A stretch of DNA of 64,000 nucleotides, taken from contig CAIOAT010000003.1 in the NCBI GenBank assembly GCA_903856085.1, positions 64,318 to 128,317 of the forward strand, written 5' to 3'. Source of the DNA: Candidatus Omnitrophota bacterium (GTDB lineage Bacteria > Omnitrophota > Omnitrophia > Omnitrophales > Aquincolibacteriaceae). The notes beneath the pieces are model-generated. The model had not been told where the DNA came from, ran no database searches, and worked only from the letters and a program-made list of their open reading frames with translations. Positions 1-14,595 of this stretch are shown one piece after another. Numbering within the stretch: the first letter of the stretch is position 1; every line of letters begins with the position of its first letter. A program made the translations under genes and the position numbers.

Positions 1-678
1 GAAGAAATGCCGGCTTATGCCGAGGAGGTGCGCGAAGCGATCTATGAAGGTATCAATCTAATGCCGCTCACGCATCCCGTAGAGATATTAAAGAATCCGG
101 CGGGTAAGGTTACCGCGGTGAAATGTATGACCATGAAGCTTGGGGACTATGATCGCAGCGGCCGTCGATCTCCAACTGCAGACGGGGCGGATCAATTCAC
201 AATGGAAGCGGATCAGGTGATCGGTGCGATCGGACAGACACTTCAGGCCGGAAATCTTTTTGAGCTCAAGGATGCTGAGATCAAGATGACACAGAATAAA
301 TTCATTTATGCAGATTCCGTGACGGGCCAGACCTCGGTTCGCGGAATTTTTGCCGGTGGGGATGCTGCATCGGGGCCCTGGTCTGTCGTTGCGGCGATCG
401 GCGCTGGGGAGAGAGCCGCCGTGGGGATCGACCAACTTTTGACAGGTGGGGACCATGCGTTCTGGCGTGAAGAGAAGGCCGTGGACACGGATTTCGATCC
501 GGATGTGGATCCTGTTCCGTATCAGCGTGAACCGGTGTGTTCGATTCCGGTCGAGAAACGGAAACATAATTTTGATGAGGTAGAGCTTTCCTGGAATGAG
601 ACTGTGATGCAGCGTCAAGCCAAGCGCTGTCTTCGCTGCGATTACGGCAAGACGGTGACCCGGAGAGGGAACAAATAA
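1..678 (+). CDS. NAD(P)H-dependent oxidoreductase, glutamate-synthase small-subunit (GltD)-like FAD/NAD(P)-binding protein; C-terminal portion only (frame is open to window edge)
   Basis: Translation contains the GltD-type pyridine-nucleotide binding region (IFAGGDAASGPWSVVAAIGAGERAAVGID) and C-terminal cysteines; reading frame continues upstream of position 1 without a stop; stop TAA overlaps the ATG of the downstream hydA (ATAATG), suggesting translational coupling. Confidence 0.6.
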   Translation, partial: EEMPAYAEEVREAIYEGINLMPLTHPVEILKNPAGKVTAVKCMTMKLGDYDRSGRRSPTADGADQFTMEADQVIGAIGQTLQAGNLFELKDAEIKMTQNKFIYADSVTGQTSVRGIFAGGDAASGPWSVVAAIGAGERAAVGIDQLLTGGDHAFWREEKAVDTDFDPDVDPVPYQREPVCSIPVEKRKHNFDEVELSWNETVMQRQAKRCLRCDYGKTVTRRGNK

Positions 679-2450
679 TGCCGAAACTCTTTGTGAATAA
701 CCAGGAGGTGGAGGTCAAGCCGGACGCGACCCTTTATGATGCCGCCAAGGTCTTAGGTGTCGAGATCCCGACGCTTTGTTATCTTGAGGGCAAGTTGCCG
801 ATCGGGGCTTGTCGTGTCTGTCTCGTGGAAGTAGAAGGCGCGAAGACTCTTGTGGCCTCCTGTTCTACGCCGGCGGTCGAGGGCATGCGCGTCCATACCA
901 ATAATAAAAGAGTGCGTGAAGCACGGCGCATGGTCGTCGAATTGATCTTGAGTGAACATGAAGGAAACTGCCAATACTGCGGCCGCAGCGAAGACTGCGA
1001 ACTAAAAGAGATCGCGTCGCATTTGGGGATCGAAGACATCCACTATAAAGGTGAAAAGCCGGCGATCCAGATCGATAGCAGTACCCCGGCCCTTGTGCGT
1101 GATTCCGGGAAATGCATCAAATGCCGTCGCTGTGTGACGGTCTGCCGGGAAGTGCAGGGTGTGGGTTCGCTTTTTCCGCAAAATCGTGGCTACAAAACCA
1201 TGATCGGTCCGGCTTTCGCTATGGATCTGGACAGCGTGGCCTGCGTTCAGTGCGGTCAGTGTGCGGCCATCTGTCCAGTGGGTGCGATCCAGGAAAAAAA
1301 TGATATCGATAGGGTCTGGGAAGCGCTGGAAGACAAGACCAAGCACGTCGTGGTGCAGACGGCTCCCGCGATCCGCGCTGCTTTGGGAGAGTGTTTCGGC
1401 TATCCTCCCGGGACTCTGGTGACCGGAAAAATGGTGACGGCCTTGCGACGGATCGGCTTTCATTCGGTTTTCGACACTAATTTTGCGGCAGACCTGACCA
1501 TTATTGAAGAAGGTACAGAACTTTTGATGCGACTTAAAAAGGCTTTGGTCGAAAAGCAGCCTGTATCCCTTCCGATGTTTACAAGTTGTTCCCCGGGCTG
1601 GATCAAGTTCGCCGAATATTATTATCCGGAATTTTTACCGAATCTCTCCACGTGCAAATCGCCGCAGCAGATGTTCGGGGCTCTGGCAAAAACTTATTAC
1701 GCGACTCAAAAAGGCGTCAAGCCCGAGGACATGGTCGTGGTTTCAATCATGCCCTGCACGGCCAAGAAATTTGAAGCTTCACGGCCTGAGATGAATGCAA
1801 GCGGGTTTCAGGATGTTGATTACGTTCTGACTACCCGCGAACTCGGATTCATGATTGAATCGGCGGGTATTGATTTCAGAAGTCTTGAGGACGGGACGAT
1901 GGATTCTCCGCTTGGGATCTCAACTGGAGCGGCGGATATTTTTGCCAATACGGGCGGCGTGATGGAAGCGGCCTTGAGGACGGTCTATGAGATCGTGACG
2001 GGCCGTGAATTTCCTGGGGCGGACCTTCGATTGGGCCCTGTGGAAGGTCTGGCGGGCATCAAGGCGGCATCGCTTGTGATTACGGGGACTGTTCCGGAAT
2101 GGTCCTTTCTTGAAAATGTCGAGGTCAAGGTGGCTGTGGCTCACGGGCTTGCGAATGCCGCGCAGTTGCTGGATCAGATCAAGGAAGGTAAGGCGCAGTA
2201 CCATTTTATTGAGATTATGACCTGCCCCGGCGGCTGCATCGGCGGGGGAGGTCAGCCTCGCTACACGGACGATGCGGTTCGTCTTGCGCGCATCAATGCG
2301 ATTTATAAAGAAGATGCCGGGAAAAAGCTCCGGAAGTCCCATGCCAATCCCCAGATTAAAAAACTTTATGATGAATATTTGAAGCAGCCTCTCGGCGAGA
2401 AGTCCCACCATCTGCTTCACACCCACTACCACGCCCGCCCCAAGACCTAG
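678..2450 (+). CDS. hydA: [FeFe]-hydrogenase catalytic subunit (HydA) with N-terminal 2Fe-2S and 4Fe-4S ferredoxin-like domains; GltD-partnered type
   Basis: 590 aa; N-terminal plant-type 2Fe-2S motif (CRVC), two CxxCxxCxxxCP 4Fe-4S motifs, H-cluster motifs TSCSPGW (L1), MPCTAKKFE (L2), EIMTCPGGCIGGGGQP (L3); coupled to upstream GltD-like gene. Confidence 0.85.
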   Translation: MPKLFVNNQEVEVKPDATLYDAAKVLGVEIPTLCYLEGKLPIGACRVCLVEVEGAKTLVASCSTPAVEGMRVHTNNKRVREARRMVVELILSEHEGNCQYCGRSEDCELKEIASHLGIEDIHYKGEKPAIQIDSSTPALVRDSGKCIKCRRCVTVCREVQGVGSLFPQNRGYKTMIGPAFAMDLDSVACVQCGQCAAICPVGAIQEKNDIDRVWEALEDKTKHVVVQTAPAIRAALGECFGYPPGTLVTGKMVTALRRIGFHSVFDTNFAADLTIIEEGTELLMRLKKALVEKQPVSLPMFTSCSPGWIKFAEYYYPEFLPNLSTCKSPQQMFGALAKTYYATQKGVKPEDMVVVSIMPCTAKKFEASRPEMNASGFQDVDYVLTTRELGFMIESAGIDFRSLEDGTMDSPLGISTGAADIFANTGGVMEAALRTVYEIVTGREFPGADLRLGPVEGLAGIKAASLVITGTVPEWSFLENVEVKVAVAHGLANAAQLLDQIKEGKAQYHFIEIMTCPGGCIGGGGQPRYTDDAVRLARINAIYKEDAGKKLRKSHANPQIKKLYDEYLKQPLGEKSHHLLHTHYHARPKT

Positions 2451-2528
2451 CGATTTTTTAATTTTTATGTTGCAAGGTTTTGGGTTTTTTGATAAAATTT
2501 CAATCGTTCGGTTTTTCACGAATGCGCT

Positions 2529-3146
2529 ATGAAAAAACTTCCCCGAAAGATCATTACAAGGGTTCTGCTGTACATACGGACGCTTGAAGGCTTGGTCAAG
2601 GAGAAGCGTTTTCTGGTTTCTTCGAAGCAGCTTTCGGAGATCACAGGGCTTTCGGACGTCAAGATCCGCAAGGACATCTCGAATTTTAAGAAAGTCGGGA
2701 AGCCCCGCATCGGTTATAAAACCGTAGATTTGAAGAAGACGCTCGAGAATTATCTGCTCCAGAATAATACGGTGCATTTAGTTCTTTTTGGAGTTGGAAA
2801 TCTTGGTTCGGCGATTTTGCAGTATCCTGGGTTCAATCGCGACAAGATCAAATTTGTCGCTGCGTTTGATGTCTCGCGTCACAAAATCGGCAAGAAGATC
2901 AACGGTGTGGGGATTTATCCCGTGGAACGGGCGCCGGTGATCATTAAACGGTGCCATGCCGATATCGGGATCATCGCGGTACCGAAAGAACAGGGCCAGG
3001 AAGTAGCGGATTATATGGTATTATCGGGGCTTCACCGGATCGTTAATTTCGCGCCTTGTTCGATCAGCGTTCCTGCGAAGGTGCAGGTTCGTAATATCGA
3101 TTTTACGATTGAGTTTTTGTCGCTTTTTTGCGATTCGCCGAAGTAG
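2529..3146 (+). CDS. rex: Redox-sensing transcriptional repressor Rex
   Basis: 205 aa; N-terminal winged-helix (ITRVLLYIRTLEGL...SSKQLSEITGLSDVKIRKD) and Rossmann fold GxGxxG (VLFGVGNLGSAIL) typical of Rex; sits between two hydrogenase operons. Confidence 0.8.
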   Translation: MKKLPRKIITRVLLYIRTLEGLVKEKRFLVSSKQLSEITGLSDVKIRKDISNFKKVGKPRIGYKTVDLKKTLENYLLQNNTVHLVLFGVGNLGSAILQYPGFNRDKIKFVAAFDVSRHKIGKKINGVGIYPVERAPVIIKRCHADIGIIAVPKEQGQEVADYMVLSGLHRIVNFAPCSISVPAKVQVRNIDFTIEFLSLFCDSPK

Positions 3147-3175
3147 AAGCCTCAACGAAAATGCGGGAGGATGCT

Positions 3176-3517
3176 ATGGAATATGACGCGCAAAAGATCC
3201 TGAGCCAGTTTAATGAAGCCATGGTGGATATCCGTAAGGCTGTGCCCAAGGAATATGAGGCTTTCATAAAAGAAAAGGAAGTGATACTTGCTTCCGGGAA
3301 GGTTCCGGAAAAGACCAAGTGGTTGCTTCTTTTGGTGGCTAGTACGACTCAGAAATGTCCGGTCTGTATCCCCCGGGCGGTACGTCATTGCCTGGATGCG
3401 GGTTGGACGAAAGAAGAAATGCTTGAGGCTTGCATGGTGGCGGTGCTTGTGGGTGGTTCCAGCGCTATGACTTATGTGTCGTTGGTAGATAAAGCCATCG
3501 AACAGATGAAAAAATAG
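3176..3517 (+). CDS. Carboxymuconolactone decarboxylase/AhpD-like family protein with CxxC motif
   Basis: ORF 3128..3517 in track; the start preferred here is the ATG at 3176 preceded by GGGAGGA (3164-3170); contains CPVC...HC arrangement (TQKCPVCIPRAVRHC) characteristic of the AhpD/CMD core; track ORF start would overlap rex by 19 nt. Confidence 0.5.
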   Translation: MEYDAQKILSQFNEAMVDIRKAVPKEYEAFIKEKEVILASGKVPEKTKWLLLLVASTTQKCPVCIPRAVRHCLDAGWTKEEMLEACMVAVLVGGSSAMTYVSLVDKAIEQMKK

Positions 3518-3635
3518 AAAAAAGATACGGCTGAATAAGTCCAGTTTTTTGAATTTTTTTCTAAAGGGTGAATTGGACTAACCCTAGCATCCTTTGATGA
3601 AAAGAAAATAAGAGGCCAGGACAAGGAGCTTTTGA

Positions 3636-4127
3636 ATGGATAAAGAGATTTTAGAGCGAGAGGTCCGAGAAATCGCGGATTCCTGGAAAGACAAAGAAGG
3701 GAATCTGATCATGGTGCTCCACCAGATCCAGAACCGGTATGGCTACGTGCCGCGCGAGGTTTCGCTCGTGCTTTCCGAAATCCTGGATGTGCCGCTTGCC
3801 CGCATTTACGAAGTCATCACGTTCTATCATTTCTTCCGTTTGACCCCTCCAGGCAAGCACACGATCTCTGTTTGTATGGGAACTGCCTGCTATCTCAAGG
3901 GCGGGGCTGAGCTTTTGGGGGAGCTGGAACATCTTCTTTGCGTAAAACCCGGGGAGACGACCAAAGATGGTCAATTCCATTTGGAAATGGTGCGCTGTCT
4001 GGGGTGCTGTGGGTTGGCGCCTGTGTTGAAAATCGGGGAGAAGGTTTATGGTGGTGTGAAGAAAAAAGATATCGGTGACATCATCGCGCATTATTCCGAA
4101 GAAGCTGAAGCTCAGGCGATCGCGTAA
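3636..4127 (+). CDS. NuoE-like thioredoxin-fold [2Fe-2S] subunit of NAD(P)-linked [FeFe]-hydrogenase (HndA/HydC-like)
   Basis: 163 aa; 24-kDa-subunit-like cysteine pattern CMGTACYLKG ... CLGCCGLAP. Confidence 0.8.
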   Translation: MDKEILEREVREIADSWKDKEGNLIMVLHQIQNRYGYVPREVSLVLSEILDVPLARIYEVITFYHFFRLTPPGKHTISVCMGTACYLKGGAELLGELEHLLCVKPGETTKDGQFHLEMVRCLGCCGLAPVLKIGEKVYGGVKKKDIGDIIAHYSEEAEAQAIA

Positions 4128-4144
4128 CGGAGAGGCAGGCACCT

Positions 4145-4495
4145 ATGATTAAAATGACAAAGAAAGACTTAGACGCCACAAAACAGAAATATGCTGAAGC
4201 GGATCGTAACTGGATCAAGGTGGGTTTTAGCACCTGCGGGATCGCGGCTGGGGCCAAGGAAGTTTATGACACGTTGGTCGAAGAAAGCCGCAAGCACAGC
4301 GCTGACGTGGAGATTAAAAAATGCGGGTGTGTAGGGATGTGCTCCGCGGAACCGCTCGTGGAGGTTCATGTTAAGAATATGCCGACGGTGTTTTACGGCA
4401 AGGTCGATAAAGAGGTCGCGACCAAGATCATGGAAAAGCATGTGTGCGGCAAGATGCTTGTGAACGACAAGATCTACGATTTGAAACTTAATTGA
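4145..4495 (+). CDS. Small thioredoxin-like [2Fe-2S] ferredoxin subunit (HndB-like)
   Basis: 116 aa; four Cys (STCGIAAG, KKCGCVGMCS); position between NuoE-like and NuoF-like genes as in Hnd-type operons. Confidence 0.6.
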   Translation: MIKMTKKDLDATKQKYAEADRNWIKVGFSTCGIAAGAKEVYDTLVEESRKHSADVEIKKCGCVGMCSAEPLVEVHVKNMPTVFYGKVDKEVATKIMEKHVCGKMLVNDKIYDLKLN

Positions 4496-4510
4496 GGATT
4501 TGGGGAAGCT

Positions 4511-6250
4511 ATGGGAAAGACAGTTTTCATTAAAGATACGGCGATCACGGGGAAGGACCGGACACGCGATTTCTATGGGGTGTTTCTCGGGACTTTGAGA
4601 GAAAAAGGGCTGGAGAACGAGGTTCAGCTCGTGCGTGTTGCGGATATTGGCATTTACGGCCAAGGGATGACTGTTCGGGTGTTGCCTGAAAATTTTCTTT
4701 ATACGAACGTTCAGGAGAATGATATCCCGGCGATCGTTCAGGACAGCGTTGTGGGAGGTAGGCCTGTCGAGGGGAAGGCGAGCGCGCAGCCCTCCAAGCA
4801 GCTTCGGATCGTGCTTCGTAATTGCGGCGTGATCGATCCAGAAAGCATTGAGGACTATATCGCGCGGGACGGATATCAGGCCCTCGCGAAGGTCCTCACT
4901 GAATACACGCCTGAAAAGGTGGCTCAGGAAATTAAAAATTCGGGACTCAGGGGGCGTGGCGGTGCGGGGTTCCCGACGGGATTGAAATGGGACATTACGC
5001 GCAAGGCCCAGGGCGACCAGAAATATATTATCTGTAACGGTGACGAAGGGGACCCAGGTGCGTACATGGACCGCAGCGTGCTGGAGGGCGATCCCCATTC
5101 CGTGATTGAGGGCATGACCATCGGAGCGTACGCGATTGGTGCTTCCAAGGGATATTTCTATATTCGGGCGGAGTATCCTCTTGCCATCGAGAGGATCGAA
5201 AAAGCCATGCGTCAGTGCCATGAGCGCGGGATTCTTGGCAATGGTATCTTGGGTTCTTCCTTTAATTTTGATCTCGAGATCCGTTTGGGTGCCGGGGCTT
5301 TCGTGTGCGGCGAGGAAACAGCGCTCATTGCTTCTATCGAAGGCAAACGGGGTTATCCGAGTCCGCGGCCTCCCTTTCCGTCTATTAAAGGACTTTGGGG
5401 AAGGCCGACCTGTATCAATAACGTTGAGACTCTAGCGAATATTCCGGTCATTGTGATGAAAGGCGGGGCCTGGTTCGCGGGTATTGGGACCGAGACCTCG
5501 AAGGGGACCAAGGTGTTTGCCGTCACCGGGAAGGTGAAGAATTCCGGTCTTGTGGAAGTTCCGATGGGGACTGCGGTCGAAGATGTTGTTTATGGAATTT
5601 GTGGCGGGGCGATGGCCGGGAAGAATGTCAAGGCGATTCAAACCGGAGGTCCTTCTGGGGGCGTGATCCCGAAAGAATTTTTCCAGACTAAAGTGGATTA
5701 CGAAAGTTTGCAAAAAATGGGTTCCATTATGGGCTCCGGCGGCATGATCGTTATGGACGAGGACGATTGCATGGTGGATATCGCTAAATTCTATCTTGGA
5801 TTTTGTGTGGATGAATCTTGCGGAAAGTGCGCTCCATGCCGTATCGGGGGAACGCAGATGTTGAAACTTCTTGTGAAGGTTACCGACGGAGAGGGGACGC
5901 AAAAGGATCTGGACCAGCTCGAGCAAATCTCCTTTGCCATGCAAAAAGCTTCTCTTTGCGGTCTTGGACAAACGGCCCCGAATCCCGTGCTTTCGACCTT
6001 GCATTATTATCGTGCCGAATATGATGCTCATGTGGACAAAAAGAAATGCCCGGCCTGTAAATGCGCCAAGTTGGTTCGGTTTATGATTATGAGCGAAAAA
6101 TGCGTGAAATGCGGCATGTGTTTTAAGGCCTGCCCTGTGGGCGCCATTTCCGGAAATCGCGAAAGCGGTTATTTGATCGATCAGACAAAATGTATTCGCT
6201 GTGGTCAATGCTTTGAGGTTTGTAAACCCCGCGCGATCAGCCGGGGCTAA
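4511..6250 (+). CDS. NuoF-like NAD(P)H-binding flavoprotein subunit of hydrogenase (HndC/HydB-like) with C-terminal 2x[4Fe-4S] ferredoxin domain
   Basis: 579 aa; GRGGAGFPTG nucleotide site, FMN region, ESCGKCAPCR 4Fe-4S, C-terminal CVKCGMCFKACP and CIRCGQCFEVC; N-terminal ~100 aa Cys-less. Confidence 0.85.
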   Translation: MGKTVFIKDTAITGKDRTRDFYGVFLGTLREKGLENEVQLVRVADIGIYGQGMTVRVLPENFLYTNVQENDIPAIVQDSVVGGRPVEGKASAQPSKQLRIVLRNCGVIDPESIEDYIARDGYQALAKVLTEYTPEKVAQEIKNSGLRGRGGAGFPTGLKWDITRKAQGDQKYIICNGDEGDPGAYMDRSVLEGDPHSVIEGMTIGAYAIGASKGYFYIRAEYPLAIERIEKAMRQCHERGILGNGILGSSFNFDLEIRLGAGAFVCGEETALIASIEGKRGYPSPRPPFPSIKGLWGRPTCINNVETLANIPVIVMKGGAWFAGIGTETSKGTKVFAVTGKVKNSGLVEVPMGTAVEDVVYGICGGAMAGKNVKAIQTGGPSGGVIPKEFFQTKVDYESLQKMGSIMGSGGMIVMDEDDCMVDIAKFYLGFCVDESCGKCAPCRIGGTQMLKLLVKVTDGEGTQKDLDQLEQISFAMQKASLCGLGQTAPNPVLSTLHYYRAEYDAHVDKKKCPACKCAKLVRFMIMSEKCVKCGMCFKACPVGAISGNRESGYLIDQTKCIRCGQCFEVCKPRAISRG

Positions 6251-6286
6251 GATAAGACAGAATTCATAGTGAGAGAAGGAGAAGTT

Positions 6287-8038
6287 ATGGTTAATGCTAT
6301 TATTAACGGGCTGAAAGTCGAAGTGCCCGCGAATACCACCATTTTAGATGCGGCAAAAAAGGTCCAGACTAGGATTCCGACGCTTTGCAAGCACCCTGAT
6401 TCCTACCTGCACGCTTCTGCGGCTTGCGGTATTTGCATCGTAAGGGTCAAGGGTACTAAAAAGATGTTGCGGGCCTGTTGCACTCCTTTGGAAGAGGGGA
6501 TGGACATTGTGACTCACGATCCGGAAATCGTATCGATTCGCAGGACGGTTCTGGAGCTTATTCTTTCCAATCATCCGAACGAATGTCTGACCTGCGGAAG
6601 GAATAACAATTGCGAACTGCAGTCTCTGGTGGCGGATTTTGGGATTCGGGAAGAATTCTATGAAAAGATCGTCCGGGATATTCCCATAGACGATTCGACC
6701 GGGAACATCGTGCTGGAACCCCGGAAGTGTATCAACTGCGGCCGCTGCGTCGATGTTTGCCAGAATGTACAGGACGTGTGGGCGCTTACTTTTCTTCAGC
6801 GAGGATTTAATACCCGTATTGCAGCGGCAGGGGATATTAGCTTGGCCGAATCCCCTTGCGTTCGGTGCGGGCAGTGTGCCGCTCATTGTCCGACCGGAGC
6901 GATCTTTGAGAAAGACGATACGAAGCTTGCGTGGAAAGCGCTTCGTGATCCAGAACAATATTGCGTGGTCCAGATCGCCCCTGCGGTGCGTGTGGCGCTT
7001 GGAGAGGCTTTCGGTTTTCCGCTCGGAGCCAATGTAACGAAGAAAATGTACACCGCTCTTCGGCGTATGGGTTTTAAGGCGGTCTTCGATACGAATTTTG
7101 CCGCAGATGTGACCATCATGGAAGAAGCGAGCGAATTTATCGAGCGGTTCGTCCATAAGAAAGGACCCCTTCCGCTCATCACGACCTGCTGTCCTTCGTG
7201 GGTGGATTTTATGGAAAAATTTCATTCGGATATGATCCCGTATTTCTCTTCCTCGAAATCGCCGCATGAGATGATGGGTGTGCTGATCAAAACCTATTAC
7301 GCGGAAAAGAACAAGTTGGATCCCGCGAAAATTAAAGTGATCTCGATCATGCCTTGCACGGCCAAGAAGTTTGAGATTTCGCGTAGCCACGAGATGTCAG
7401 TTTCTGGATTCCAAGACGTAGACGTGGTGCTCACGACTCGGGAACTTGCGCGAATGATCAAACAGTCATGTATCAATTTTTCAAACCTTCCAGACACGGA
7501 ATGTGATCATATTTTGGGGGATTATAGCGGTGCCGGAACGATCTTCGGGGCGACCGGCGGTGTGATGGAAGCGGCGCTGCGCACGGCCTATTCCTTTGCG
7601 ACAGGCAAAAAGCTTCCCAAAGTTGAATTTGAAAACGTCCGGGGCTTAAAAGGCGTCAAAGAGACTTCGGTCAACATTGAAGGCACGGAAGTAAAGATCG
7701 CGGTTGCGCATGGTCTTGCGAATGTGGAATATGTTCTTACTCAAATACGCAAGGCCCAGAAGGAGGGCAAACCTCTCCCGTATCACTTTGTCGAGGTCAT
7801 GGCTTGCCCTGGCGGCTGCGTAGGCGGTGGTGGACAGCCGTATGGCGTGACGGATGAACTGCGTTTGGCGCGTGCGAAGGGACTTTATTCGGATGACGAG
7901 GCCCAAACGGTCCGATGCTCGCATGAGAATCCGTATGTGCAGCAGCTTTACAAGGATTTTCTCGGGAAGCCCTTAAGTGAGAAGGCCCACCATCTGTTGC
8001 ATACGAAGTATCAGCCGTTGCCTATTTATAGGCGGTAA
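6287..8038 (+). CDS. hydA: [FeFe]-hydrogenase catalytic subunit (HndD/HydA-like)
   Basis: Start chosen at ATG 6287 (MVNAIING) with AAGGAG RBS; H-cluster motifs TTCCPSW, MPCTAKKFE, EVMACPGGCVGGGGQP; N-terminal 2Fe-2S and 4Fe-4S motifs; paralog of 678..2450. Confidence 0.85.
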   Translation: MVNAIINGLKVEVPANTTILDAAKKVQTRIPTLCKHPDSYLHASAACGICIVRVKGTKKMLRACCTPLEEGMDIVTHDPEIVSIRRTVLELILSNHPNECLTCGRNNNCELQSLVADFGIREEFYEKIVRDIPIDDSTGNIVLEPRKCINCGRCVDVCQNVQDVWALTFLQRGFNTRIAAAGDISLAESPCVRCGQCAAHCPTGAIFEKDDTKLAWKALRDPEQYCVVQIAPAVRVALGEAFGFPLGANVTKKMYTALRRMGFKAVFDTNFAADVTIMEEASEFIERFVHKKGPLPLITTCCPSWVDFMEKFHSDMIPYFSSSKSPHEMMGVLIKTYYAEKNKLDPAKIKVISIMPCTAKKFEISRSHEMSVSGFQDVDVVLTTRELARMIKQSCINFSNLPDTECDHILGDYSGAGTIFGATGGVMEAALRTAYSFATGKKLPKVEFENVRGLKGVKETSVNIEGTEVKIAVAHGLANVEYVLTQIRKAQKEGKPLPYHFVEVMACPGGCVGGGGQPYGVTDELRLARAKGLYSDDEAQTVRCSHENPYVQQLYKDFLGKPLSEKAHHLLHTKYQPLPIYRR

Positions 8039-8129
8039 TATCAAGTAGCGTGGTTTTGAGTTCCTGAAGAAGAGGGCCCGCATAAGCTGGCCTGAAGCTA
8101 AGGGAAAGACAATCAAATAGTTGTCTTGT

Positions 8130-8163
8130 CCCAGCTTCCTCCCAGGAGCTGGGATTTTTTTTT
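8130..8163 (+). terminator. Rho-independent terminator after hnd operon (CCCAGCT / AGCTGGG stem followed by T9)
   Basis: Inverted repeat cccagct...agctggg at 8130-8153 followed by tttttttttt at 8155-8163, immediately downstream of the second hydA. Confidence 0.7.
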
Positions 8164-8226
8164 GGCGACAGCGGGACGCATCCGTCAGGCTTTAGGATGC
8201 ATAACGAACCGGAAAGGACGAGACGT

Positions 8227-8475
8227 ATGAACAAACGTTTGGGATTTGTCGGGATCATTATTGAGGATCGCAAGAAGGCAGCCGAAGAGGTGAACCATCT
8301 GCTTTCGGAGCACGGAGACATGGTCGTGGCGCGTGTCGGGATCCCGTATAAGGAAAAACATTGCTGCGTGATTACTCTGATTGTGGATACGACGACCGAT
8401 GAATTGGGAGCTCTCACCGGAAAACTTGGAACGCTCGAAGGTGTGTCGGTCAAATCTGCGCTCACGAAAGCTTAA
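8227..8475 (+). CDS. TM1266-like ACT-domain protein (putative iron-only hydrogenase system regulator family)
   Basis: 82 aa from ATG 8227 (MNKRLGFVGIIIEDRKKAAEEVNHLLSEHGDMVVARVGIPY...); small ACT-like fold pattern and genomic context directly upstream of hydF/hydG/hydE. Confidence 0.6.
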   Translation: MNKRLGFVGIIIEDRKKAAEEVNHLLSEHGDMVVARVGIPYKEKHCCVITLIVDTTTDELGALTGKLGTLEGVSVKSALTKA

Positions 8476-8489
8476 GGAAAAACAAAGAC

Positions 8490-9878
8490 ATGACAAACCG
8501 TATCGAGCAAGATCCCCTTGGCAGCAAAGAGGTGCCTGAAAATGCTTATTGGGGCATTCATACTCAGCGTGCCATTGAGAATTTTCCATTGAGTGGGCTT
8601 CGTGTGTCCCCGGGATTGATCCGCGCTTTGGTCACAGTCAAGAAGGCCGCATGTCTTGTGAACCTGGAATTGGGTTATCTCGCGGAGGAAAAAGCCAAAG
8701 CTATTTCGGCAGCCTGCGATGAAATCCTTGAGGGGAAATTATCCGACCATTGGCCGCTTGATGCGCTCCAGGGGGGTGCAGGAACTTCGACGAACATGAA
8801 CGTGAACGAAGTGATCGCCCATCGCGCAATCGAAATCCTGGGCGGAAAAAAAAGCCAGTACGAGCTTGTTCATCCGATTGAAGACGTGAACCTGCATCAG
8901 TCCACAAACGATGTTTACCCGACGGCTCTCAAAATGGCGGCGATCCTGGGACTTAAAACATTGAGTGAGGCAGCCGCGCAACTGCAGGGAGCTTTTCAGC
9001 AAAAAGAAAAAGAATTCGTCGGGATCATTAAAATAGGGAGGACCGAACTCCAGGAAGCCGTTCCTTTGACGTTGGGCGCAGAATTTGCGGCGTTTGCAGA
9101 GGCGGCAGCGCGCGATCGTTGGCGTACCTTTAAGTGCGAGGAGCGTTTGCGCGTTGTGAATCTCGGTGGTACCGCCATCGGAACCGGACTCGGCGCGCCG
9201 CACCGTTATATATTCCTCCTCATCGAAAAGTTACGCGAGATTACAGGGCTTGGCCTGAGCCGGAGCGAAAATATGATCGATGCCACGGCGAATGCGGATC
9301 CGTTCGTAGAAGTCTCCGGGATCTTAAAAGCTCACGCAAGCAATTTGCTGAAGATCGCAAATGATCTGCGGCTTATGAATCTCTTGGGCGAGATCGCGTT
9401 GCCGGGGCTTCAAAGCGGTTCTTCCATCATGCCGGGCAAAGTCAATCCTGTGATTCTGGAGGCCGTGATGCAAGCGGGGCTCAAGGTGATAGCCAATGAT
9501 CTTCTCGTGACGGAAGCAGCCTCACGCGGGTCATTTCAGATATGCGAATTCATGCCGCTTTTGGCCCACGCCCTGTTGGAGTCGATCGAAATTTTGACCC
9601 ATGCGGATCAAATGTTGGCGGCACATGTTGGCGGGATCAAAGCCGATCCGGAAAAGTGCCGGAAGTATGTCGATCAATCCGAAGGGATCATGACAGCGTT
9701 TGTGCCGTATCTCGGCTATGACAAAGCGGGCGAACTCTTGAAAGCGTTCAAGGCTTCGGCGCAGGGGAATCTCCGGGGGTTTCTGGAAGACCGGCTGGGT
9801 AAGGAAATTGTAGCGAAGACGCTTTCTCCTCAGAATCTTTTAGCGTTAGGGCACAAGGACCATGGAAAAAACACCTAA
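8490..9878 (+). CDS. Aspartate ammonia-lyase family protein (fumarate-lyase superfamily)
   Basis: 462 aa; fumarate-lyase signature GSSIMPGKVNP; N-terminus (EQDPLGSKEVPENAYWGIHTQRAIENF) closer to aspartase than class II fumarase; overlaps hydF start by 17 nt. Confidence 0.75.
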   Translation: MTNRIEQDPLGSKEVPENAYWGIHTQRAIENFPLSGLRVSPGLIRALVTVKKAACLVNLELGYLAEEKAKAISAACDEILEGKLSDHWPLDALQGGAGTSTNMNVNEVIAHRAIEILGGKKSQYELVHPIEDVNLHQSTNDVYPTALKMAAILGLKTLSEAAAQLQGAFQQKEKEFVGIIKIGRTELQEAVPLTLGAEFAAFAEAAARDRWRTFKCEERLRVVNLGGTAIGTGLGAPHRYIFLLIEKLREITGLGLSRSENMIDATANADPFVEVSGILKAHASNLLKIANDLRLMNLLGEIALPGLQSGSSIMPGKVNPVILEAVMQAGLKVIANDLLVTEAASRGSFQICEFMPLLAHALLESIEILTHADQMLAAHVGGIKADPEKCRKYVDQSEGIMTAFVPYLGYDKAGELLKAFKASAQGNLRGFLEDRLGKEIVAKTLSPQNLLALGHKDHGKNT

Positions 9879-11118
9879 ATCACTGCGGTTGCAGATCGGG
9901 ATCTTTGGTCGCACCAATGTGGGGAAATCGAGTTTTCTCAACATGGTGGCCGGCCAGGATGTGGCGGTTACTTCACCTGTGCCCGGCACGACCACGGATG
10001 TCGTCGAAAAGACCATGGAGCTTTTGCCGATCGGACCGGTGGTTTTTCTTGATACCGGGGGTATGGACGACAGTTCCGTATTGTCAGAAAAACGAATACA
10101 GAGAACGAAAAAGATTTTTGATCGCGCGGATGTCGTGGTGCTTGTGACCGAGCCCGAACAATGGACCGGGTTTGAAGACGCGATCTGTGACGAAGCTACG
10201 GAGAAAAAAGCTCCCTTGATTGTGGTAGTCAACAAAACGGATCTGGGTGTCCCGACCGCCGGTTTTCTTCAAAAGATTCGCGGGCGTTCAGAACGTATTT
10301 TGCTTTGTTCAAGCGTGGATGTCAGCAAACGAGATGATCTCGTGAACGATCTTAAGCGGAATCTGCTCGAAGTTTGTCCGGAGGATTTCCTGAGGCCGCC
10401 TCCCTTGATCGGAGATCTTGTGCCGGCGGGCGGACTTGTGGTCCTGATCGTTCCGATCGATCTTGAAGCGCCCAAAGGTCGCTTGATCTTGCCTCAGGTC
10501 CAGACGATCCGGGAAGTTCTGGATAGTGACGCCGCGGTGCTGGTGGTCAAAGAACGGGAATACGCCGCTTTGCTTATGCGGCTGAAGAACCCGCCGGACC
10601 TTGTGGTCTGTGATTCGCAAGTGGTGCTCAAGATGGTTGCCGATACACCGCCGGCGGTCAAATGTACGACATTTTCCATTCTTTTTTCGAGGCTTAAGGG
10701 CGATCTGACCGAAATGGTCAAAGGTGTTACGGCGATCGACAGATTGAAGTCTGGGGACAAGGTTCTGATCGCGGAATCTTGCAGTCATCACGCCGTCGAA
10801 GATGACATTGGCCGTGTAAAGATTCCGCGTTGGCTCAGGCAATACGCGGGCGTGGAACTGGATATAAGGAGCTCCGCGGGTCGCGATTATCCGGAGGACC
10901 TTGAGACTTACAAGCTCATTATTCATTGCGGGTCGTGCATGCTGACGCGCCGGGAGATGCTTTTTCGTATCGGAAAGGCAAAGGCCAGGGGTGTTCCTAT
11001 CACGAATTACGGTGTCGCGATCTCGTTTGTCCAAGGAGTGCTTGATAGGACGCTTGCGCCATTTCCGATGGTGCTAGAAGCTTATCGGAGCCAGATTCAA
11101 GCAGGAGAGAGGAAATAA
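9862..11118 (+). CDS. hydF: [FeFe]-hydrogenase H-cluster maturation GTPase HydF
   Basis: 418 aa; GTPase motifs GRTNVGKSS, DTGG, NKTD; C-terminal Fe-S ligands CSHH ... HCGSC. Confidence 0.85.
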   Translation: MEKTPKSLRLQIGIFGRTNVGKSSFLNMVAGQDVAVTSPVPGTTTDVVEKTMELLPIGPVVFLDTGGMDDSSVLSEKRIQRTKKIFDRADVVVLVTEPEQWTGFEDAICDEATEKKAPLIVVVNKTDLGVPTAGFLQKIRGRSERILLCSSVDVSKRDDLVNDLKRNLLEVCPEDFLRPPPLIGDLVPAGGLVVLIVPIDLEAPKGRLILPQVQTIREVLDSDAAVLVVKEREYAALLMRLKNPPDLVVCDSQVVLKMVADTPPAVKCTTFSILFSRLKGDLTEMVKGVTAIDRLKSGDKVLIAESCSHHAVEDDIGRVKIPRWLRQYAGVELDIRSSAGRDYPEDLETYKLIIHCGSCMLTRREMLFRIGKAKARGVPITNYGVAISFVQGVLDRTLAPFPMVLEAYRSQIQAGERK

Positions 11119-11121
11119 AAA

Positions 11122-12618
11122 ATGAATACTCAGTTTCAAGATGTTCATCCGTGGATCAGAGATCGAATTAAACAGGACCAGATCGATCGCTATCTCGATC
11201 ATGGCCGTGATTTTATCGATGATGCCGGGATCTGGAACAAAATCGAGACAGCGCTGGAACCCGATGCCGCAACCGTGCGTGCTCTTCTCTCGAAATCGCT
11301 TTCCGTCCAGACACTTACGCCGGAAGAACTGGCGGTGCTGATCCGCGTTCAGGATCCCGAGATGCTGCAGGAAATGGAAGTCGCCGCTTTTACGATCAAG
11401 AAAAAGGTCTATGACAACCGCATCGTCACGTTCGCGCCGCTTTACATGGGCAATTACTGTGTGAATAACTGCGCCTATTGTGGATTCAAACAGGAGAATC
11501 TCAAGGCGAAGCGCCGTGTCCTTTCGATGGATGAGATTCGTAAAGAGACTGAAAGTTTGACCGGGAAGATCGGTCACAAGCGTATTATCGCGGTCTACGG
11601 CGAGCATCCGCTGACGGGGATCGATTATATCCTGGAGAGCATGAAAACGATCTACGATGTGAAGACGCCGACCAAACACGGCTACGGTAATATCCGCCGT
11701 ATCAATGTGAATGCCGCGCCGATGTCGATCGAGGAGCTTACGCGTCTTCGGGATGGCGGGCTCGGAACCTATCAGGTGTTCCAGGAAACGTATCACCACG
11801 AGACTTACGCGAAGCTTCATCCGAAGGGCACGCTTAAATCCGATTACCGGTGGCGGCTCTATGCCATGCATCGCGCGATGGAGGCAGGGATCGATGACGT
11901 GGGGATCGGCGTGCTGTTCGGACTCTATGATTGGCGTTTTGAGGTGATGGCGCTTCTTTATCACGCCCTCCACCTCGAGGCAAAGATGGGGATCGGCCCG
12001 CACACGGTTTCGTTCCCGCGCATGGAACCCGCTCTCAATTCCGAATATGCCGAACATTCGCCCTACAAAGTTTCCGACGAAGATTTCAAGAAGATCATTC
12101 TGCTGATCCGTCTCGCCATTCCTTACACCGGCATGATCATCACAGCACGCGAGACGGCCCCGATGCGCCGCGCTGCGATCGGTCTCGGTATCACGCAGAC
12201 CGATGCTTCCACAAAGATTGGGATCGGAAGTTACAGCGAAGAGGGAAAGGGCCAGGAATCCGAACGGCAACAGTTCATGCTTGGCGATACGCGGAGCCTC
12301 GACGAGTTGGTCAAGGATTTCGCGGAAATGGGACACATTACTTCGTTTTGCACAGCCGGATATCGATGTGGCCGGACTGGAAAATGCATCATGGATCTGC
12401 TTCGTAGCGGTCAGGAAGGAAAATTCTGCAAACTGAACGCCGTGCTGACTTTTCAGGAATGGTTGGATGATTTCGCGACCCCGGCAACCCGCGAAGCCGG
12501 ACTCCGGGTTCTCGAGCGTGAGCTCGAAGAGATCCGTACCCGGAATCCTCAAGGGTTCCCGGTTTTTTATCAATTCCTTGAACGTGTTCGTAAAGGGGAG
12601 AGGGATCTCTTTCTGTAA
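11122..12618 (+). CDS. hydG: [FeFe]-hydrogenase maturase HydG (radical SAM tyrosine lyase)
   Basis: 498 aa; radical SAM CVNNCAYCGF; C-terminal auxiliary cluster cysteines (CTAGYRCGRTGKC). Confidence 0.85.
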   Translation: MNTQFQDVHPWIRDRIKQDQIDRYLDHGRDFIDDAGIWNKIETALEPDAATVRALLSKSLSVQTLTPEELAVLIRVQDPEMLQEMEVAAFTIKKKVYDNRIVTFAPLYMGNYCVNNCAYCGFKQENLKAKRRVLSMDEIRKETESLTGKIGHKRIIAVYGEHPLTGIDYILESMKTIYDVKTPTKHGYGNIRRINVNAAPMSIEELTRLRDGGLGTYQVFQETYHHETYAKLHPKGTLKSDYRWRLYAMHRAMEAGIDDVGIGVLFGLYDWRFEVMALLYHALHLEAKMGIGPHTVSFPRMEPALNSEYAEHSPYKVSDEDFKKIILLIRLAIPYTGMIITARETAPMRRAAIGLGITQTDASTKIGIGSYSEEGKGQESERQQFMLGDTRSLDELVKDFAEMGHITSFCTAGYRCGRTGKCIMDLLRSGQEGKFCKLNAVLTFQEWLDDFATPATREAGLRVLERELEEIRTRNPQGFPVFYQFLERVRKGERDLFL

Positions 12619-12649
12619 ACGAATAAGGCGCACGGAGTATGGATAAAAA

Positions 12650-13711
12650 ATGCAAGATCTGACACGGGAAGAGATGCTGGCGTGGTTTAGCGAAAAAGAT
12701 CCTCAGAAGCTCGAGGGGCTTTTCCGGGAGGCGCGTGCGTGCGCCATCCGGCATGTGGGCTCCAAAGTTTATTTTCGTGGCATTATTGAGTTCAGCAATC
12801 TCTGTGCGAAAGATTGTTACTATTGTGGTATTCGCAAGAGCAACCCGAATGTTCCCCGTTTCACCATGAGTGAACATGAGATCCTGGAATGTGCGATGGC
12901 AGCTCAAGAAATGGACTATGGATCCATCGTTCTACAGTCCGGCGAGCGCCAGGATGAGGTCTTTGTCCGTTTCATTGAGGGTGTGCTCCGGAAGATCAAA
13001 AACGCAACTTCCGGAAAACTGGGAATCACGCTTTCCTTGGGGGAGCAAACCGCGGAAACTTATGCGCGATGGTTTGGGGCGGGTGCGCACCGGTATCTTC
13101 TCCGGATCGAGACAAGTGATCCTGTTCTCTACAAGAGACTTCACCCTCCAGATCATTCCTTCGAAACGCGTCGCGAATGTCTCAGAACGCTCCGCCGTAT
13201 AGGCTATCAGGTTGGGACCGGTGTTATGATCGGTCTTCCTTTCCAGACGCACGAAAATCTGGTCGAAGATATTCTGTTCTTCAAGAACGAAGAGATTGAT
13301 ATGATTGGCATGGGGCCGTATGTTCCTCATGGAGAGACACCTCTGGTGCAAGAAGTTGATACCGGGGAAAATTTCAGACTTGGGCTCGTGATGATCGCTC
13401 TTTCAAGACTCACCCTGAAAAACGTGAATATTGCGGCCGCGACCGCGCTCCAAACGCTGGATCCCTCCGGAAGAGAAAAAGGGGTTCAGGCCGGTGCTAA
13501 TATCATCATGCCGAACATTACGCCTACGGACTATCGCAAGTTCTACCAGCTTTACGACAACAAGCCTTGTCTCGATGAAAACGCTCGCCAGTGCAAGAGC
13601 TGTCTTGAGAAGCGTATCCGAGCGGCAGGGGCTGAGATCGGCTATGGCGAATGGGGTGATTCCGTGCATTTTTTGAAAAAGCAGAAATCCTTAAAAGAAA
13701 GCAAGTCGTAG
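12650..13711 (+). CDS. hydE: [FeFe]-hydrogenase maturase HydE (radical SAM)
   Basis: 353 aa; CAKDCYYCGIR radical SAM motif; biotin-synthase-like fold pattern; follows hydG. Confidence 0.8.
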   Translation: MQDLTREEMLAWFSEKDPQKLEGLFREARACAIRHVGSKVYFRGIIEFSNLCAKDCYYCGIRKSNPNVPRFTMSEHEILECAMAAQEMDYGSIVLQSGERQDEVFVRFIEGVLRKIKNATSGKLGITLSLGEQTAETYARWFGAGAHRYLLRIETSDPVLYKRLHPPDHSFETRRECLRTLRRIGYQVGTGVMIGLPFQTHENLVEDILFFKNEEIDMIGMGPYVPHGETPLVQEVDTGENFRLGLVMIALSRLTLKNVNIAAATALQTLDPSGREKGVQAGANIIMPNITPTDYRKFYQLYDNKPCLDENARQCKSCLEKRIRAAGAEIGYGEWGDSVHFLKKQKSLKESKS

Positions 13712-13993
13712 GTGGTATGTAGTAGGTTGTGTTGCCATCTATGATTTTTGAGGTGTATTCTACGCTTGATATCTTCAAAAAATATGATAGAACATAGTGC
13801 CGTCGGATCGGCAAAGGCCTGTTTTAAGAACCCGCCCAGTCCCAATATCAACGATCGAAGGGAAGCTGAGCGTGTGGTCGTCTGAACCGTCATGGGTGAA
13901 GTGAAAAGTTTGGGCGGAAATAGGGCAGCTCGGGATTCCTATTGAGCAATGGAAGATGAAAGCCGCGACACGTGCAATCTAACGAGGTGGACC

Positions 13994-14377: not shown

Positions 14378-14407
14378 AGATCGCAAGTCATTGAAATTAT
14401 AATTCAT

Positions 14408-14489
14408 GCGAGCGTGGTGAAACTGGCAGACACATCAGCTTGAGGGGCTGACGCCGCAAGGCATGGAGGTTCAAGTCCTCTCGCTCGCA
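14408..14489 (+). tRNA. tRNA-Leu (anticodon GAG), class II with long variable arm
   Basis: Acceptor stem GCGAGCG/CGCTCGC, 3-bp D-stem GTG/CAC with GG in D-loop, anticodon stem TCAGC/GCTGA with loop TTGAGGG (anticodon GAG, G37), 14-nt variable arm, T-arm GGAGG-TTCAAGT-CCTCT, discriminator A; CCA not encoded; architecture parallels E. coli tRNA-Leu. Confidence 0.85.
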
Positions 14490-14595
14490 TTTGTTTTTTG
14501 TCAAACAAGTACGTCCTCGTGACGGTTCAGGGAAGGCCGTCTGCGATGAACGCATTGTTTTTACAACCTTGTTACCTCAGAGGAATCCACAGGAT

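Follow-up and report, generated by a model that had tools for sequence, protein, structure and literature searches.

Organization of the hydrogenase cluster

The stretch of DNA analyzed here, referred to as the window, comprises 64,000 nucleotides (nt) from a Candidatus Omnitrophota bacterium (assembly GCA_903856085.1, contig CAIOAT010000003.1, positions 64,318 to 128,317 of the forward strand). Positions 1-13711 hold a genuine, tightly packed gene cluster for making and maturing two [FeFe]-hydrogenases in an Omnitrophota-like bacterium, in which closely spaced open reading frames (ORFs) fill the plus strand. These ORFs were assigned by Pfam and NCBIfam profile searches. Gene content, domain order and cofactor motifs were observed directly, and all components of the cluster are of recognised kinds. 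The 3' end of a hydB1::gltD fusion gene is followed by hydA1, rex, an ahpD-like gene, the four genes of a second hydrogenase, an intrinsic terminator and a five-gene maturation operon. Every gene named in a preliminary description of the window was found where that description had placed it, with the expected domains (Table 1).

Exact-protein look-up of HydA1 retrieved the same locus (L001) from a 69.9-kb JGI metagenome contig (3300009502, Ga0114951_10000315); the ENA contig ERZ1426827 also matched. L001 is 100% identical to window positions 1-12450 and extends the window 9.3 kb upstream. The preliminary description had presented catalysis, redox sensing and maturation as one contiguous block, which they are, and the block continues upstream beyond the window to hydC1 and nfnAB.

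The first hydrogenase contains a NuoF-GltD fusion

The window opens on an ORF previously described as a GltD-like oxidoreductase, translationally coupled to hydA1 and running off the edge. The coupling was borne out, with an ATAATG at positions 675-680 in which the TAA (676-678) and the ATG (678-680) overlap by one base. The upstream extension proposed as a check, however, altered the identity of the partner. The ORF turned out to be the last 225 residues of a 1056-aa NuoF-GltD fusion, which also has a full NuoF/HydB module and is preceded by a gene for a NuoE-like HydC; the assignment to an A2-type GltD-partnered enzyme did not survive.

The HydB1::GltD protein consists, in order, of a thioredoxin-like [2Fe-2S] domain, a NuoF FMN/NADH domain, an N3-type [4Fe-4S] domain, a DPD_II/Fer4_20 domain with 2x[4Fe-4S], FAD and NADPH domains, and a tail. 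The DPD_II domain stands where the C-terminal 2x[4Fe-4S] ferredoxin-like domain (B3/B4) is usual. Residues 160-558 match NuoF (TIGR01959, 500.8 bits) and residues 527-1044 match PRK12771/GltD (481 bits). Against solved structures, residues 37-574 match HydB of the NiFe-HydABCSL complex 7t2r (789 bits) and of 7q4v (743 bits), and residues 573-1045 match the StnC-type chains 9bov_A (378 bits) and 8oh5_C (330 bits), as well as 9n5u_A. The fragment within the window alone gave matches to Pyr_redox_2, PRK12771, PRK12814 and gltA. Cofactor motifs comprise CFGTGC...CNGFC, GRGGAGF, CNADEGDPGAF, CGKCVPC, GGGPSG for FAD, and GGGNAA...YRR of the NADPH type. Across the 81 fusion homologues in which motif conservation was scored, the GxGxxA and YRR motif, the FAD motif and RCLRC are invariant (81/81 each), and GRGGAGF is present in 78.

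The tail comprises 75 residues (window positions ~445-675, ending ...AKRCLRCDYG, with RCLRC at 625-639). Its RCLRC resembles the N-terminal ...ALRCLQC [4Fe-4S] ligand motif of NfnB, and the N-terminus of the fusion's own GltD module has HHCEAGVC. This suggests that the tail folds back to complete a cluster, in a permuted arrangement shared with the PRK12771/StnC type.

Upstream of the window, hydC1 encodes a NuoE-like protein of 189 aa and overlaps hydB1::gltD by 8 nt. A gap of 109 nt separates it from nfnA and nfnB, adjacent genes predicted to encode the small FAD/[2Fe-2S] and the large GltD-like 2x[4Fe-4S] subunits of an NfnAB (NfnSL) enzyme. They score 264 and 580 bits to chains of 4ylf, 294 and 544 bits to 5jca (NfnI in its depositors' naming), and 410.8 and 573.9 bits to the profiles NF004862 (cutoff 220) and TIGR01316 (cutoff 471.75).

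Table 1. Features of the hydrogenase cluster and of related loci. Plain coordinates refer to the window; those with an L prefix refer to the locus named.
Feature	Position	Strand	Basis or remark
nfnA, nfnB	L001:3933-4760, 4774-6159		off-window; PDB and NCBIfam matches
Sister Rex-type box TTGTTCTAAATTTCACAA	L001:6237-6254		off-window; ends 15 nt before hydC1
hydB1::gltD 3' end (residues 832-1056)	1-678	+	full gene L001:6831-10001, 1056 aa
hydA1, M3-type [FeFe]-hydrogenase catalytic subunit, 590 aa	678-2450	+	Pfam, NCBIfam; 631 bits to 7q4v_A
Promoter-like site: TTGCAA, 17-nt spacer, TAAAAT with TG extension	2470-2498	+	upstream of rex
Putative Rex-type operator TCGTTCGGTTTTTCACGA, 18 bp	2504-2521	+	ends 8 nt before rex ATG
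rex, redox-sensing repressor, 205 aa, GVGNLG Rossmann motif	2529-3146	+	five NCBIfam Rex models above cutoff
AhpD/CMD-family protein, CPVC, 113 aa from ATG 3176	3176-3517	+	PF02627 42.1 bits (cutoff 23)
hydC2/hndA-like, NuoE-type [2Fe-2S] subunit	3636-4127	+	Pfam, NCBIfam
hndB/hydD(bfuD)-like thioredoxin-like [2Fe-2S] protein, 116 aa, four Cys	4145-4495	+	weak Pfam match (21 bits, below cutoff)
hydB2/hndC-like, NuoF subunit	4511-6250	+	Pfam, NCBIfam
hydA2/hndD-like catalytic subunit, 583 aa	6287-8038	+	Pfam, NCBIfam
Intrinsic terminator: 11-pair stem 8128-8155, then T-run of eight or nine	8128-8164	+	closes rex-to-hydA2 unit
TM1266-family putative iron-only-hydrogenase system regulator	8227-8475 (alternative start 8197)	+	TIGR03959 105 bits (cutoff 60.8)
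aspA-like aspartate ammonia-lyase	8490-9878	+	NF008909 565 bits (cutoff 510)
hydF maturation GTPase	9862-11118	+	TIGR03918 526.7 bits (cutoff 325.55)
hydG radical SAM maturase	11122-12618	+	TIGR03955 466.4 bits (cutoff 312.15)
hydE radical SAM maturase	12650-13711	+	TIGR03956 365.5 bits (cutoff 254.6)
Short HydA-like ORFs	L007:15255-16013, L014:6898-7770, L017:5455-6375, L019:7329-8057, L021:15447-16199, L022:7630-8358, L043:15275-16003

Class and distribution of the three-gene hydrogenase

Judged by domain content and gene order, operon 1 is a HydC–HydB::GltD–HydA hydrogenase, the sub-type I BfuABC of Zheng & Huang 2024 (mSystems, PMC11406978). In sub-type I, BfuB has DPD_II and an FAD/NAD(P) domain replacing B3/B4, and the genes are ordered C-(D)-B-A; the protein architecture and gene order predicted here conform to both. 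Sub-type I is known from Hydrogenedentota, Spirochaetota, Planctomycetota, Verrucomicrobiota and Kiritimatiellota (PMC11406978), and an example in that paper, the metagenome-assembled genome (MAG) CSSed162cmA_463, is among our loci, with 67% identity.

Classification by neighboring genes gives conflicting answers. Under the HydDB rule (PMC5037454), a neighbor with a GltA, GltD or 'putative oxidoreductase' domain 'but not NuoF' makes a hydrogenase A2, and a neighbor with NuoF makes it A3. HydA1 is A3 and not A2 by this rule, because its neighbor matches NuoF besides GltD/PRK12771, and both operon 1 (HydC1 and HydB::GltD) and operon 2 (HydC2 and HydB2) have the NuoF neighbor and NuoE-like subunit of A3/HydABC enzymes. 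A survey from 2026, in whose rule PRK12771/PRK12814 are listed first, would make HydA1 A2, a class it terms functionally uncharacterised. Operon 1 falls outside the Stn/Nfn-Bfu type, having its GltD module in the B subunit and a full HydA as the A subunit, and HydB1 departs from the canonical BfuBC core (Schut et al. 2022), which has complete BfuB cofactors with B3/B4, by carrying DPD_II and FAD instead. Neighbor-based rules can thus mislabel hydrogenases, here as either A2 or A3, when the enzyme is actually a hybrid with an A2-style NADPH module on HydB.

A genome scan for the HydB::GltD fusion confirmed at least 582 loci, and the 80 best of these were compared with the proteins of the cluster by tblastn. 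In a protein search, the best 120 clusters were all full-length fusions, with 64-92% identity. The loci span Omnitrophota, Spirochaetota, Planctomycetota, Verrucomicrobiota, Hydrogenedentota, Kiritimatiellota, Lentisphaerota, Fibrobacterota, Bacteroidota and others, about ten phyla. HydA lies directly 3' of the fusion in 69 of the 70 loci with downstream room, the exception (L021) being a partial match, and HydC lies 5' of it in all 76 loci with upstream room, counting one (L070) with a one-base overlap. A small BfuD/HndB-like gene is intercalated in 18 loci. The three-gene module is conserved across phyla.

The nearest genomes among the best 80 loci are three Omnitrophota MAGs (74-78% identity), which together with L001, standing for the window, make up the four Omnitrophota loci referred to below. 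The best species-representative genome reaches just 78% at the protein level, so these 80 loci include no close representative of the window's lineage. With 67-97% amino acid identity, the MAGs share the synteny nfnA-nfnB-hydC1-hydB::gltD-hydA1-rex-ahpD-hydC2-hndB-hydB2-hydA2-TM1266-(aspA)-hydF-hydG. The adjacency of nfnAB to the fusion operon is restricted to 4 of the 80 loci. In a Chitinispirillaceae MAG of the Fibrobacterota (L036, 14987-17213), nfnAB was found directly 3' of a sub-type I hydA and followed by rex and a hydC2-like gene, which makes this locus, by gene order, a second and independent example of a sub-type I hydrogenase with nfnAB and rex beside it. In one of the Omnitrophota MAGs (L004, 7413-9480), nfnB and hydC1 are separated by ORFs identified by eye as a response regulator and a histidine kinase-like protein; despite this insertion, hydC1 still has the promoter and Rex box directly in front of it.

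Two Spirochaete genomes (L005:69-11121 and L006:9452-20517) each carry two convergent HydC–HydB::GltD–HydA copies. Identity of the second copy to the window proteins is no more than 34-48%, so the fusion type has diverged into at least two deep lineages. In several loci from Planctomycetota, Spirochaetia and 'Deltaproteobacteria', hydA1 is followed by a short ORF that is 27-31% identical to a portion of HydA (Table 1). It may be a truncated or sensory HydA-like gene, and it is absent from the window.

The catalytic subunits HydA1 and HydA2

HydA1 and HydA2, both of the M3 type, are 48% identical, lie 3.8 kb apart as described previously, and both score above the cutoff of 765 bits of the group A model NF040763 (879.6 and 802.6 bits, respectively). 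Each has a 2Fe-2S domain, a NuoG-type 4Fe-4S domain, a 2x[4Fe-4S] domain, the H-domain (Fe_hyd_lg_C; PF02906, 327 bits in HydA1 and 317 in HydA2) and the small-subunit domain (PF02256). The ORF list starts hydA2 at GTG 6269; a GAAGGAG lies 7 nt 5' of the ATG at 6287.

The H-cluster motifs were compared with the canonical L1 TSCCPxW, L2 MPCxxKxxE and L3 ExMxCxxGCxxG. HydA2 has every cysteine, with L1 TTCCPSW, L2 MPCTAKKFE and L3 EVMACPGGCVGGGGQP (EVMACPGGCVGG). HydA1 has intact L2 (MPCTAKKFE) and L3 (EIMTCPGGCIGGGGQP, EIMTCPGGCIGG), whereas its L1, TSCSPGW, has the second Cys replaced by Ser. The residue replaced corresponds to CpI Cys300, a ligand of [4Fe-4S]H. Complete L1-L3 motifs were thus found in HydA2 alone, and the L1 of HydA1 is formally a deviation of the kind that the preliminary description had named as refuting it. 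The same TSCSPGW...SCKSP arrangement is present in the solved HydA1 chain of 7q4v, named iron hydrogenase by its depositors, which we take to be from the active Acetobacterium woodii enzyme. In the related loci, T/SSCSP was found in 81 of the 89 HydA sequences scored. The variant also fits the relaxed P1 motif xTSCxPxW of PMC11406978, in which four of the five BfuA sub-types commonly have Ser here. Because it is common to 7q4v HydA1 and 81/89 related HydA, the L1 variant does not appear to be a sign of a dead enzyme, and HydA1 is treated as catalytic.

HydA1 also has an extra Cys in LSTCKSPQQ (window 1581-1595 region; 1572-1592), about 20 residues past L1, where CpI has LSSAKSPQQ. This residue may compensate for the lost L1 Cys, although the pairing is not strict. 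The extra Cys (T/SCKSP) accompanies TSCSP or SSCSP in 78 of 81 sequences, the other three having TAKSP, and four TSCCP sequences carry it as well.

The second, Hnd-type hydrogenase

The Hnd layout previously described for the second operon was confirmed: NuoE-like, small thioredoxin-like, NuoF-like and HydA genes occupy positions 3636-8038 with gaps of 17, 15 and 36 nt. HydB2 keeps the C-terminal 2x[4Fe-4S] ferredoxin-like domain (B3/B4), with two Fer4 motifs at residues 526-575. Its N-terminal thioredoxin-like domain (B5; window 4511-4840) aligns with HydB of 7t2r, with all [2Fe-2S] cysteines replaced. The Cys spacing of the HndB-like protein, C-x29-CxCx3C, is unusual. By its domains, B3/B4 included, operon 2 looks in every respect like one for a conventional NAD+/ferredoxin bifurcating enzyme of the HydABC(D)/Hnd type. 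The label "NAD(P)-linked" attached to it earlier is dated, although the layout stands; in PMC7820892, Hnd is described as NAD+/ferredoxin bifurcating and not NADP-reducing.

Rex, promoters and transcription units

Rex and an AhpD-like CxxC protein lie between the two HydA genes, as had been noted. Rex matches NF003995 (191.2 bits, cutoff 126), PF06971 and PF02629, which gives it an N-terminal winged-helix domain and a Rossmann domain for NADH. The AhpD-like protein is classed by its profile match as an AhpD/CMD family member; the start of its gene at 3176 has GGGAGG upstream, with alternatives at 3161 and 3128. Among the loci compared, this gene was found in the four Omnitrophota loci only, each time between rex and hydC2.

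The earlier suggestion to look for Rex operators at the two hydrogenase promoters was answered in part. Putative 18-bp boxes were found before rex in the window and before hydC1 upstream of it (Table 1). The regions 5' of hydC2, of nfnA and of the TM1266-like operon gave none. Comparison of intergenic regions in the four Omnitrophota loci gave the conserved box AAT[CT]GTTCNNNNTTTCAC[AG]A[AT]T, which stands immediately 3' of a −35/−10 pair before hydC1 and rex at all eight sites; the flanks diverge, and all eight aligned sequences have the −10 GATA core. The conserved Rex-type boxes overlap the predicted transcription starts of units 2 and 3, that is, of the hydC1 and rex operons. Written as TYGTTCN4TTTCACRA, the box differs from TTGTGAAN4TTCACAA at three positions, each of them within the left half-site. 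The degenerate 18-mer has one exact match in the 64-kb window against 0.00 expected, a count to be read with the fact that the pattern was derived from these sites. Related or canonical boxes also lie 5' of rex or hydC1 in loci from Hydrogenedentota, Spirochaetia, Planctomycetota and Verrucomicrobiota. A search with the canonical consensus TTGTGAANNNNTTCACAA allowing up to three mismatches was discarded, as it performed at chance level (3 matches against 3.3 expected in the window, 1 against 1.2 in L001); among these matches, however, was one 15 nt before hydC1. In other organisms, [FeFe]-hydrogenase and hydG genes are established targets of Rex (PMC6391272).

The strong terminator described after the second operon is the strongest site in a scan of 14.5 kb. 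The ahpD-hydC2 gap is 118 nt here and about 30-40 nt in the other Omnitrophota loci. Because this gap is short elsewhere and no box precedes hydC2, rex–ahpD–hydC2–hndB–hydB2–hydA2 probably forms a single operon, autoregulated by Rex and closed by the terminator. An Rfam scan of the whole window gave tRNA-Leu alone, and no riboswitch or leader in the cluster.

The maturation operon

The full HydE/F/G set reported previously is present, with all three proteins above equivalog cutoffs. The operon has five genes rather than three, however, since a TM1266-like gene and an aspartate ammonia-lyase gene between the terminator and hydF had been overlooked. The genes are spaced by +14, −17 (the aspA-hydF overlap), +3 and +31 nt. 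The position of aspA beside hydF is a documented association, and AspA can serve as ammonia donor, supplying the bridgehead nitrogen of the dithiomethylamine (DTMA) ligand in vitro (PMC11736057). AspA is adjacent to HydF in 6 of the 12 HydF-containing loci and absent there in two Omnitrophota loci (L002 and L003).

Functional interpretation

We interpret the locus as a chromosomal redox-balancing and H2 cluster of an Omnitrophota-like anaerobe, with four transcription units on one strand. Unit 1, outside the window, would be nfnAB, a homologue of the ferredoxin/NADH:NADP+ transhydrogenase. Unit 2, hydC1–hydB1::gltD–hydA1, would make a three-subunit [FeFe]-hydrogenase of the HydABC/Bfu type. 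Unit 3 would run from rex through the ahpD-like gene to hydA2, closed by the strong terminator, and unit 4, TM1266-like–aspA–hydF–hydG–hydE, would mature the H-cluster with its own ammonia source. To this explanation as a whole, a four-unit cluster controlled by Rex and containing a HydC-HydB::GltD-HydA enzyme that uses NADP(H), we assign a probability of roughly 0.6.

In Bfu enzymes, ferredoxin binds at the B3/B4 domain (PMC12018979), and the GltD module of StnC is a non-bifurcating NADPH port that passes electrons via two [4Fe-4S] clusters (PMC10482914). Because B3/B4 is replaced by a GltD module with an invariant NADPH-type motif, and the GltD module of StnC is an NADPH port, we propose coupling of NAD(H) and NADP(H) without ferredoxin. 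The GltD module of the operon-1 enzyme would be an NADP(H) port, as in StnC, wired where ferredoxin normally docks. Without ferredoxin there, the enzyme would couple H2 to NAD(H) through FMN and to NADP(H) through FAD. At low H2, NADH and NADPH would be oxidised to 2 H2. NfnAB would interconvert reduced ferredoxin, NADH and NADPH and thereby link the ferredoxin pool. A rise in NADH/NAD+ would release Rex from both operators, inducing both hydrogenases, and reductant would be disposed of as H2. The adjacent nfnAB, the Rex boxes on both hydrogenase promoters and the invariant NADPH-type motif together lend support to the view that the cluster balances the NADH and NADPH pools by way of H2. We place this coupling scheme, with its NfnAB link and Rex induction, a little short of even odds. 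The further idea that HydC–HydB::GltD–HydA constitutes a so far uncharacterised enzyme class, ferredoxin-independent, coupling H2 to NADH and NADPH jointly, with NADP(H) standing in for ferredoxin in the bifurcating core, teamed with NfnAB and switched by Rex in Omnitrophota, is more tentative still, and we regard it as a rather doubtful possibility.

Several points weigh against this interpretation. The searchable literature gave no biochemical study of a NuoF-GltD or HydB::GltD hydrogenase, only the Stn/Nfn-Bfu work and a Hydrogenedentota genome survey, and the substrate stoichiometry and direction of the enzyme are inferred. NADP+ is not a low-potential acceptor, and a bifurcating core feeding NADP+ is thermodynamically less obvious than one feeding ferredoxin. 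The low frequency of nfnAB beside the fusion operon counts here as well. As for Rex, the box pattern comes from its own sites, with independent support from cross-genome conservation and position only, and the left half-site TYGTTC departs from the TTGTGAA consensus; the 118-nt ahpD-hydC2 gap could hold a promoter of its own.

The main rival proposal is that HydB::GltD still uses ferredoxin, with the fused NfnB-like FAD as a second bifurcation site and ferredoxin docking at the GltD [4Fe-4S] clusters as in NfnAB; a single complex would then tie ferredoxin, NAD(H) and NADP(H) to H2. The GltD module is 39% identical to the neighboring NfnB and keeps both [4Fe-4S] motifs and the FAD/NADPH motifs, the large subunit of NfnAB carries the bifurcating FAD (PMC9304861), and Zheng & Huang (PMC11406978) raise the extra FAD as a possible second bifurcation site, which also tells against our own scheme. 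Yet the nearest GltD module of known structure within a Bfu-type complex, that of StnC, no longer bifurcates and is a simple NADPH port (PMC10482914), the tail and N-terminal Cys arrangement are of the PRK12771/StnC type rather than that of NfnB, and operon 1 has no NfnA-like high-potential partner. We regard ferredoxin use by the fusion as unlikely.

The remaining alternatives fare much worse. A horizontally acquired mobile island is suggested by the tRNA-Leu gene 700 nt 3' of hydE and by reports of BfuABC clusters moving between phyla. However, GC content is uniform (0.49-0.53 across 64 kb), neither an integrase nor a transposase nor repeats were noticed in the flanking sequence examined, and the gene order shared with three other Omnitrophota genomes fits vertical descent within the lineage. 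Because of this synteny, the uniform GC and the housekeeping genes downstream, the block is best read as a resident chromosomal cluster, and mobility is improbable. It is more improbable again that HydA1 is a non-catalytic or sensory paralogue and that only the Hnd-type enzyme makes or consumes H2: the loss of the L1 Cys is real, and an earlier genome paper took TSCSPGW as a motif deviation (PMC3787301), but the variant is widely shared, L2 and L3 are intact, the NF040763 score is well above cutoff, and PAS or kinase domains are lacking. Least credible of all is a two-subunit 'glutamate-synthase-linked' A2 hydrogenase made of HydA1 and a stand-alone GltD-like NADPH oxidoreductase. Within the window only a GltD-type C-terminus overlapping hydA1 can be seen, and the 2026 survey rule assigns any HydA with a PRK12771/PRK12814 neighbor to A2; this dimer was rejected on the complete fusion gene following a NuoE-like gene, the three-gene order kept in about 70 loci, and the HydDB bar on NuoF-containing neighbors (PMC5037454).

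Immediately downstream of the cluster, a 142-aa Lys/Glu-rich ORF from position 13949, without Pfam or NCBIfam match, is directly followed by tRNA-Leu(GAG) at 14407-14490. The listed TTG start (14491) of the next, phosphoglucomutase-like ORF abuts this tRNA gene, so the true start of that ORF must be located further downstream.

If the proposed function of HydB::GltD holds, many hydrogenases binned as 'uncharacterised A2' or lumped in A3, in at least ten phyla, would gain a concrete role. The type is widespread in PVC-group phyla, Spirochaetota, Hydrogenedentota and others, and is biochemically uncharacterised. It had already been seen in genome surveys, to which this locus adds contextual clues, and the cluster offers a compact set of structural, regulatory, maturation and ammonia-supply genes for heterologous expression.

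Comparison with known systems

The closest described system is sub-type I of PMC11406978, a bioinformatic description without biochemistry. The window shares the replacement of B3/B4 by DPD_II 2x[4Fe-4S] and a C-terminal FAD/NAD(P) domain, the order C-B-A, without BfuD in the closest relatives, and Ser at the fifth position of the P1 motif. It differs in residing in an Omnitrophota-like genome, flanked by nfnAB, rex, a second hydrogenase and maturases, and in its Rex-type box.

The second operon resembles Desulfovibrio fructosovorans HndABCD (NuoE-like, small thioredoxin-like, NuoF-like, HydA), a likeness in gene order; in the window, rex and the AhpD-like gene precede the four genes. As in the Caldicellulosiruptor bescii type of Rex regulon with [FeFe]-hydrogenase and hydG genes (PMC6391272), rex adjoins hydrogenase genes and 18-bp boxes resembling TTGTGAANNNNTTCACAA overlap promoters, that of rex included, whereas the left half-site here is TYGTTC and not TTGTGA, and no box was found before the maturation operon.

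With the solved electron-bifurcating HydABC hydrogenases 7q4v and 8a6t, which we take to be the Acetobacterium woodii and Thermoanaerobacter kivui enzymes, the first hydrogenase shares the TSCSPGW/SCKSP arrangement and overall similarity of HydA1, the HydB core of residues 37-574 and a NuoE-like HydC. Unlike them, HydB1 has the GltD module in place of the C-terminal 2x[4Fe-4S] ferredoxin-like domain, while HydB2 has the standard C-terminus. HydDB group A2 (putative glutamate-synthase-linked) likewise has a GltD/PRK12771 NADPH module next to a group A HydA, but in the window the neighbor also has NuoF and the complex has HydC and HydB modules. StnABC/NfnABC (8oh5, 9bov, 9n5u) share the HydBC-type core and a PRK12771/StnC-type GltD module (330-378 bits over residues 573-1045) with two [4Fe-4S] clusters, FAD and the GxGxxA NADPH motif. 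In those complexes, however, GltD is inserted in a NuoG-like A subunit without H-cluster. The enzyme encoded here has a true HydA as its A subunit, and its GltD module is joined to the B subunit where the ferredoxin site would otherwise lie.

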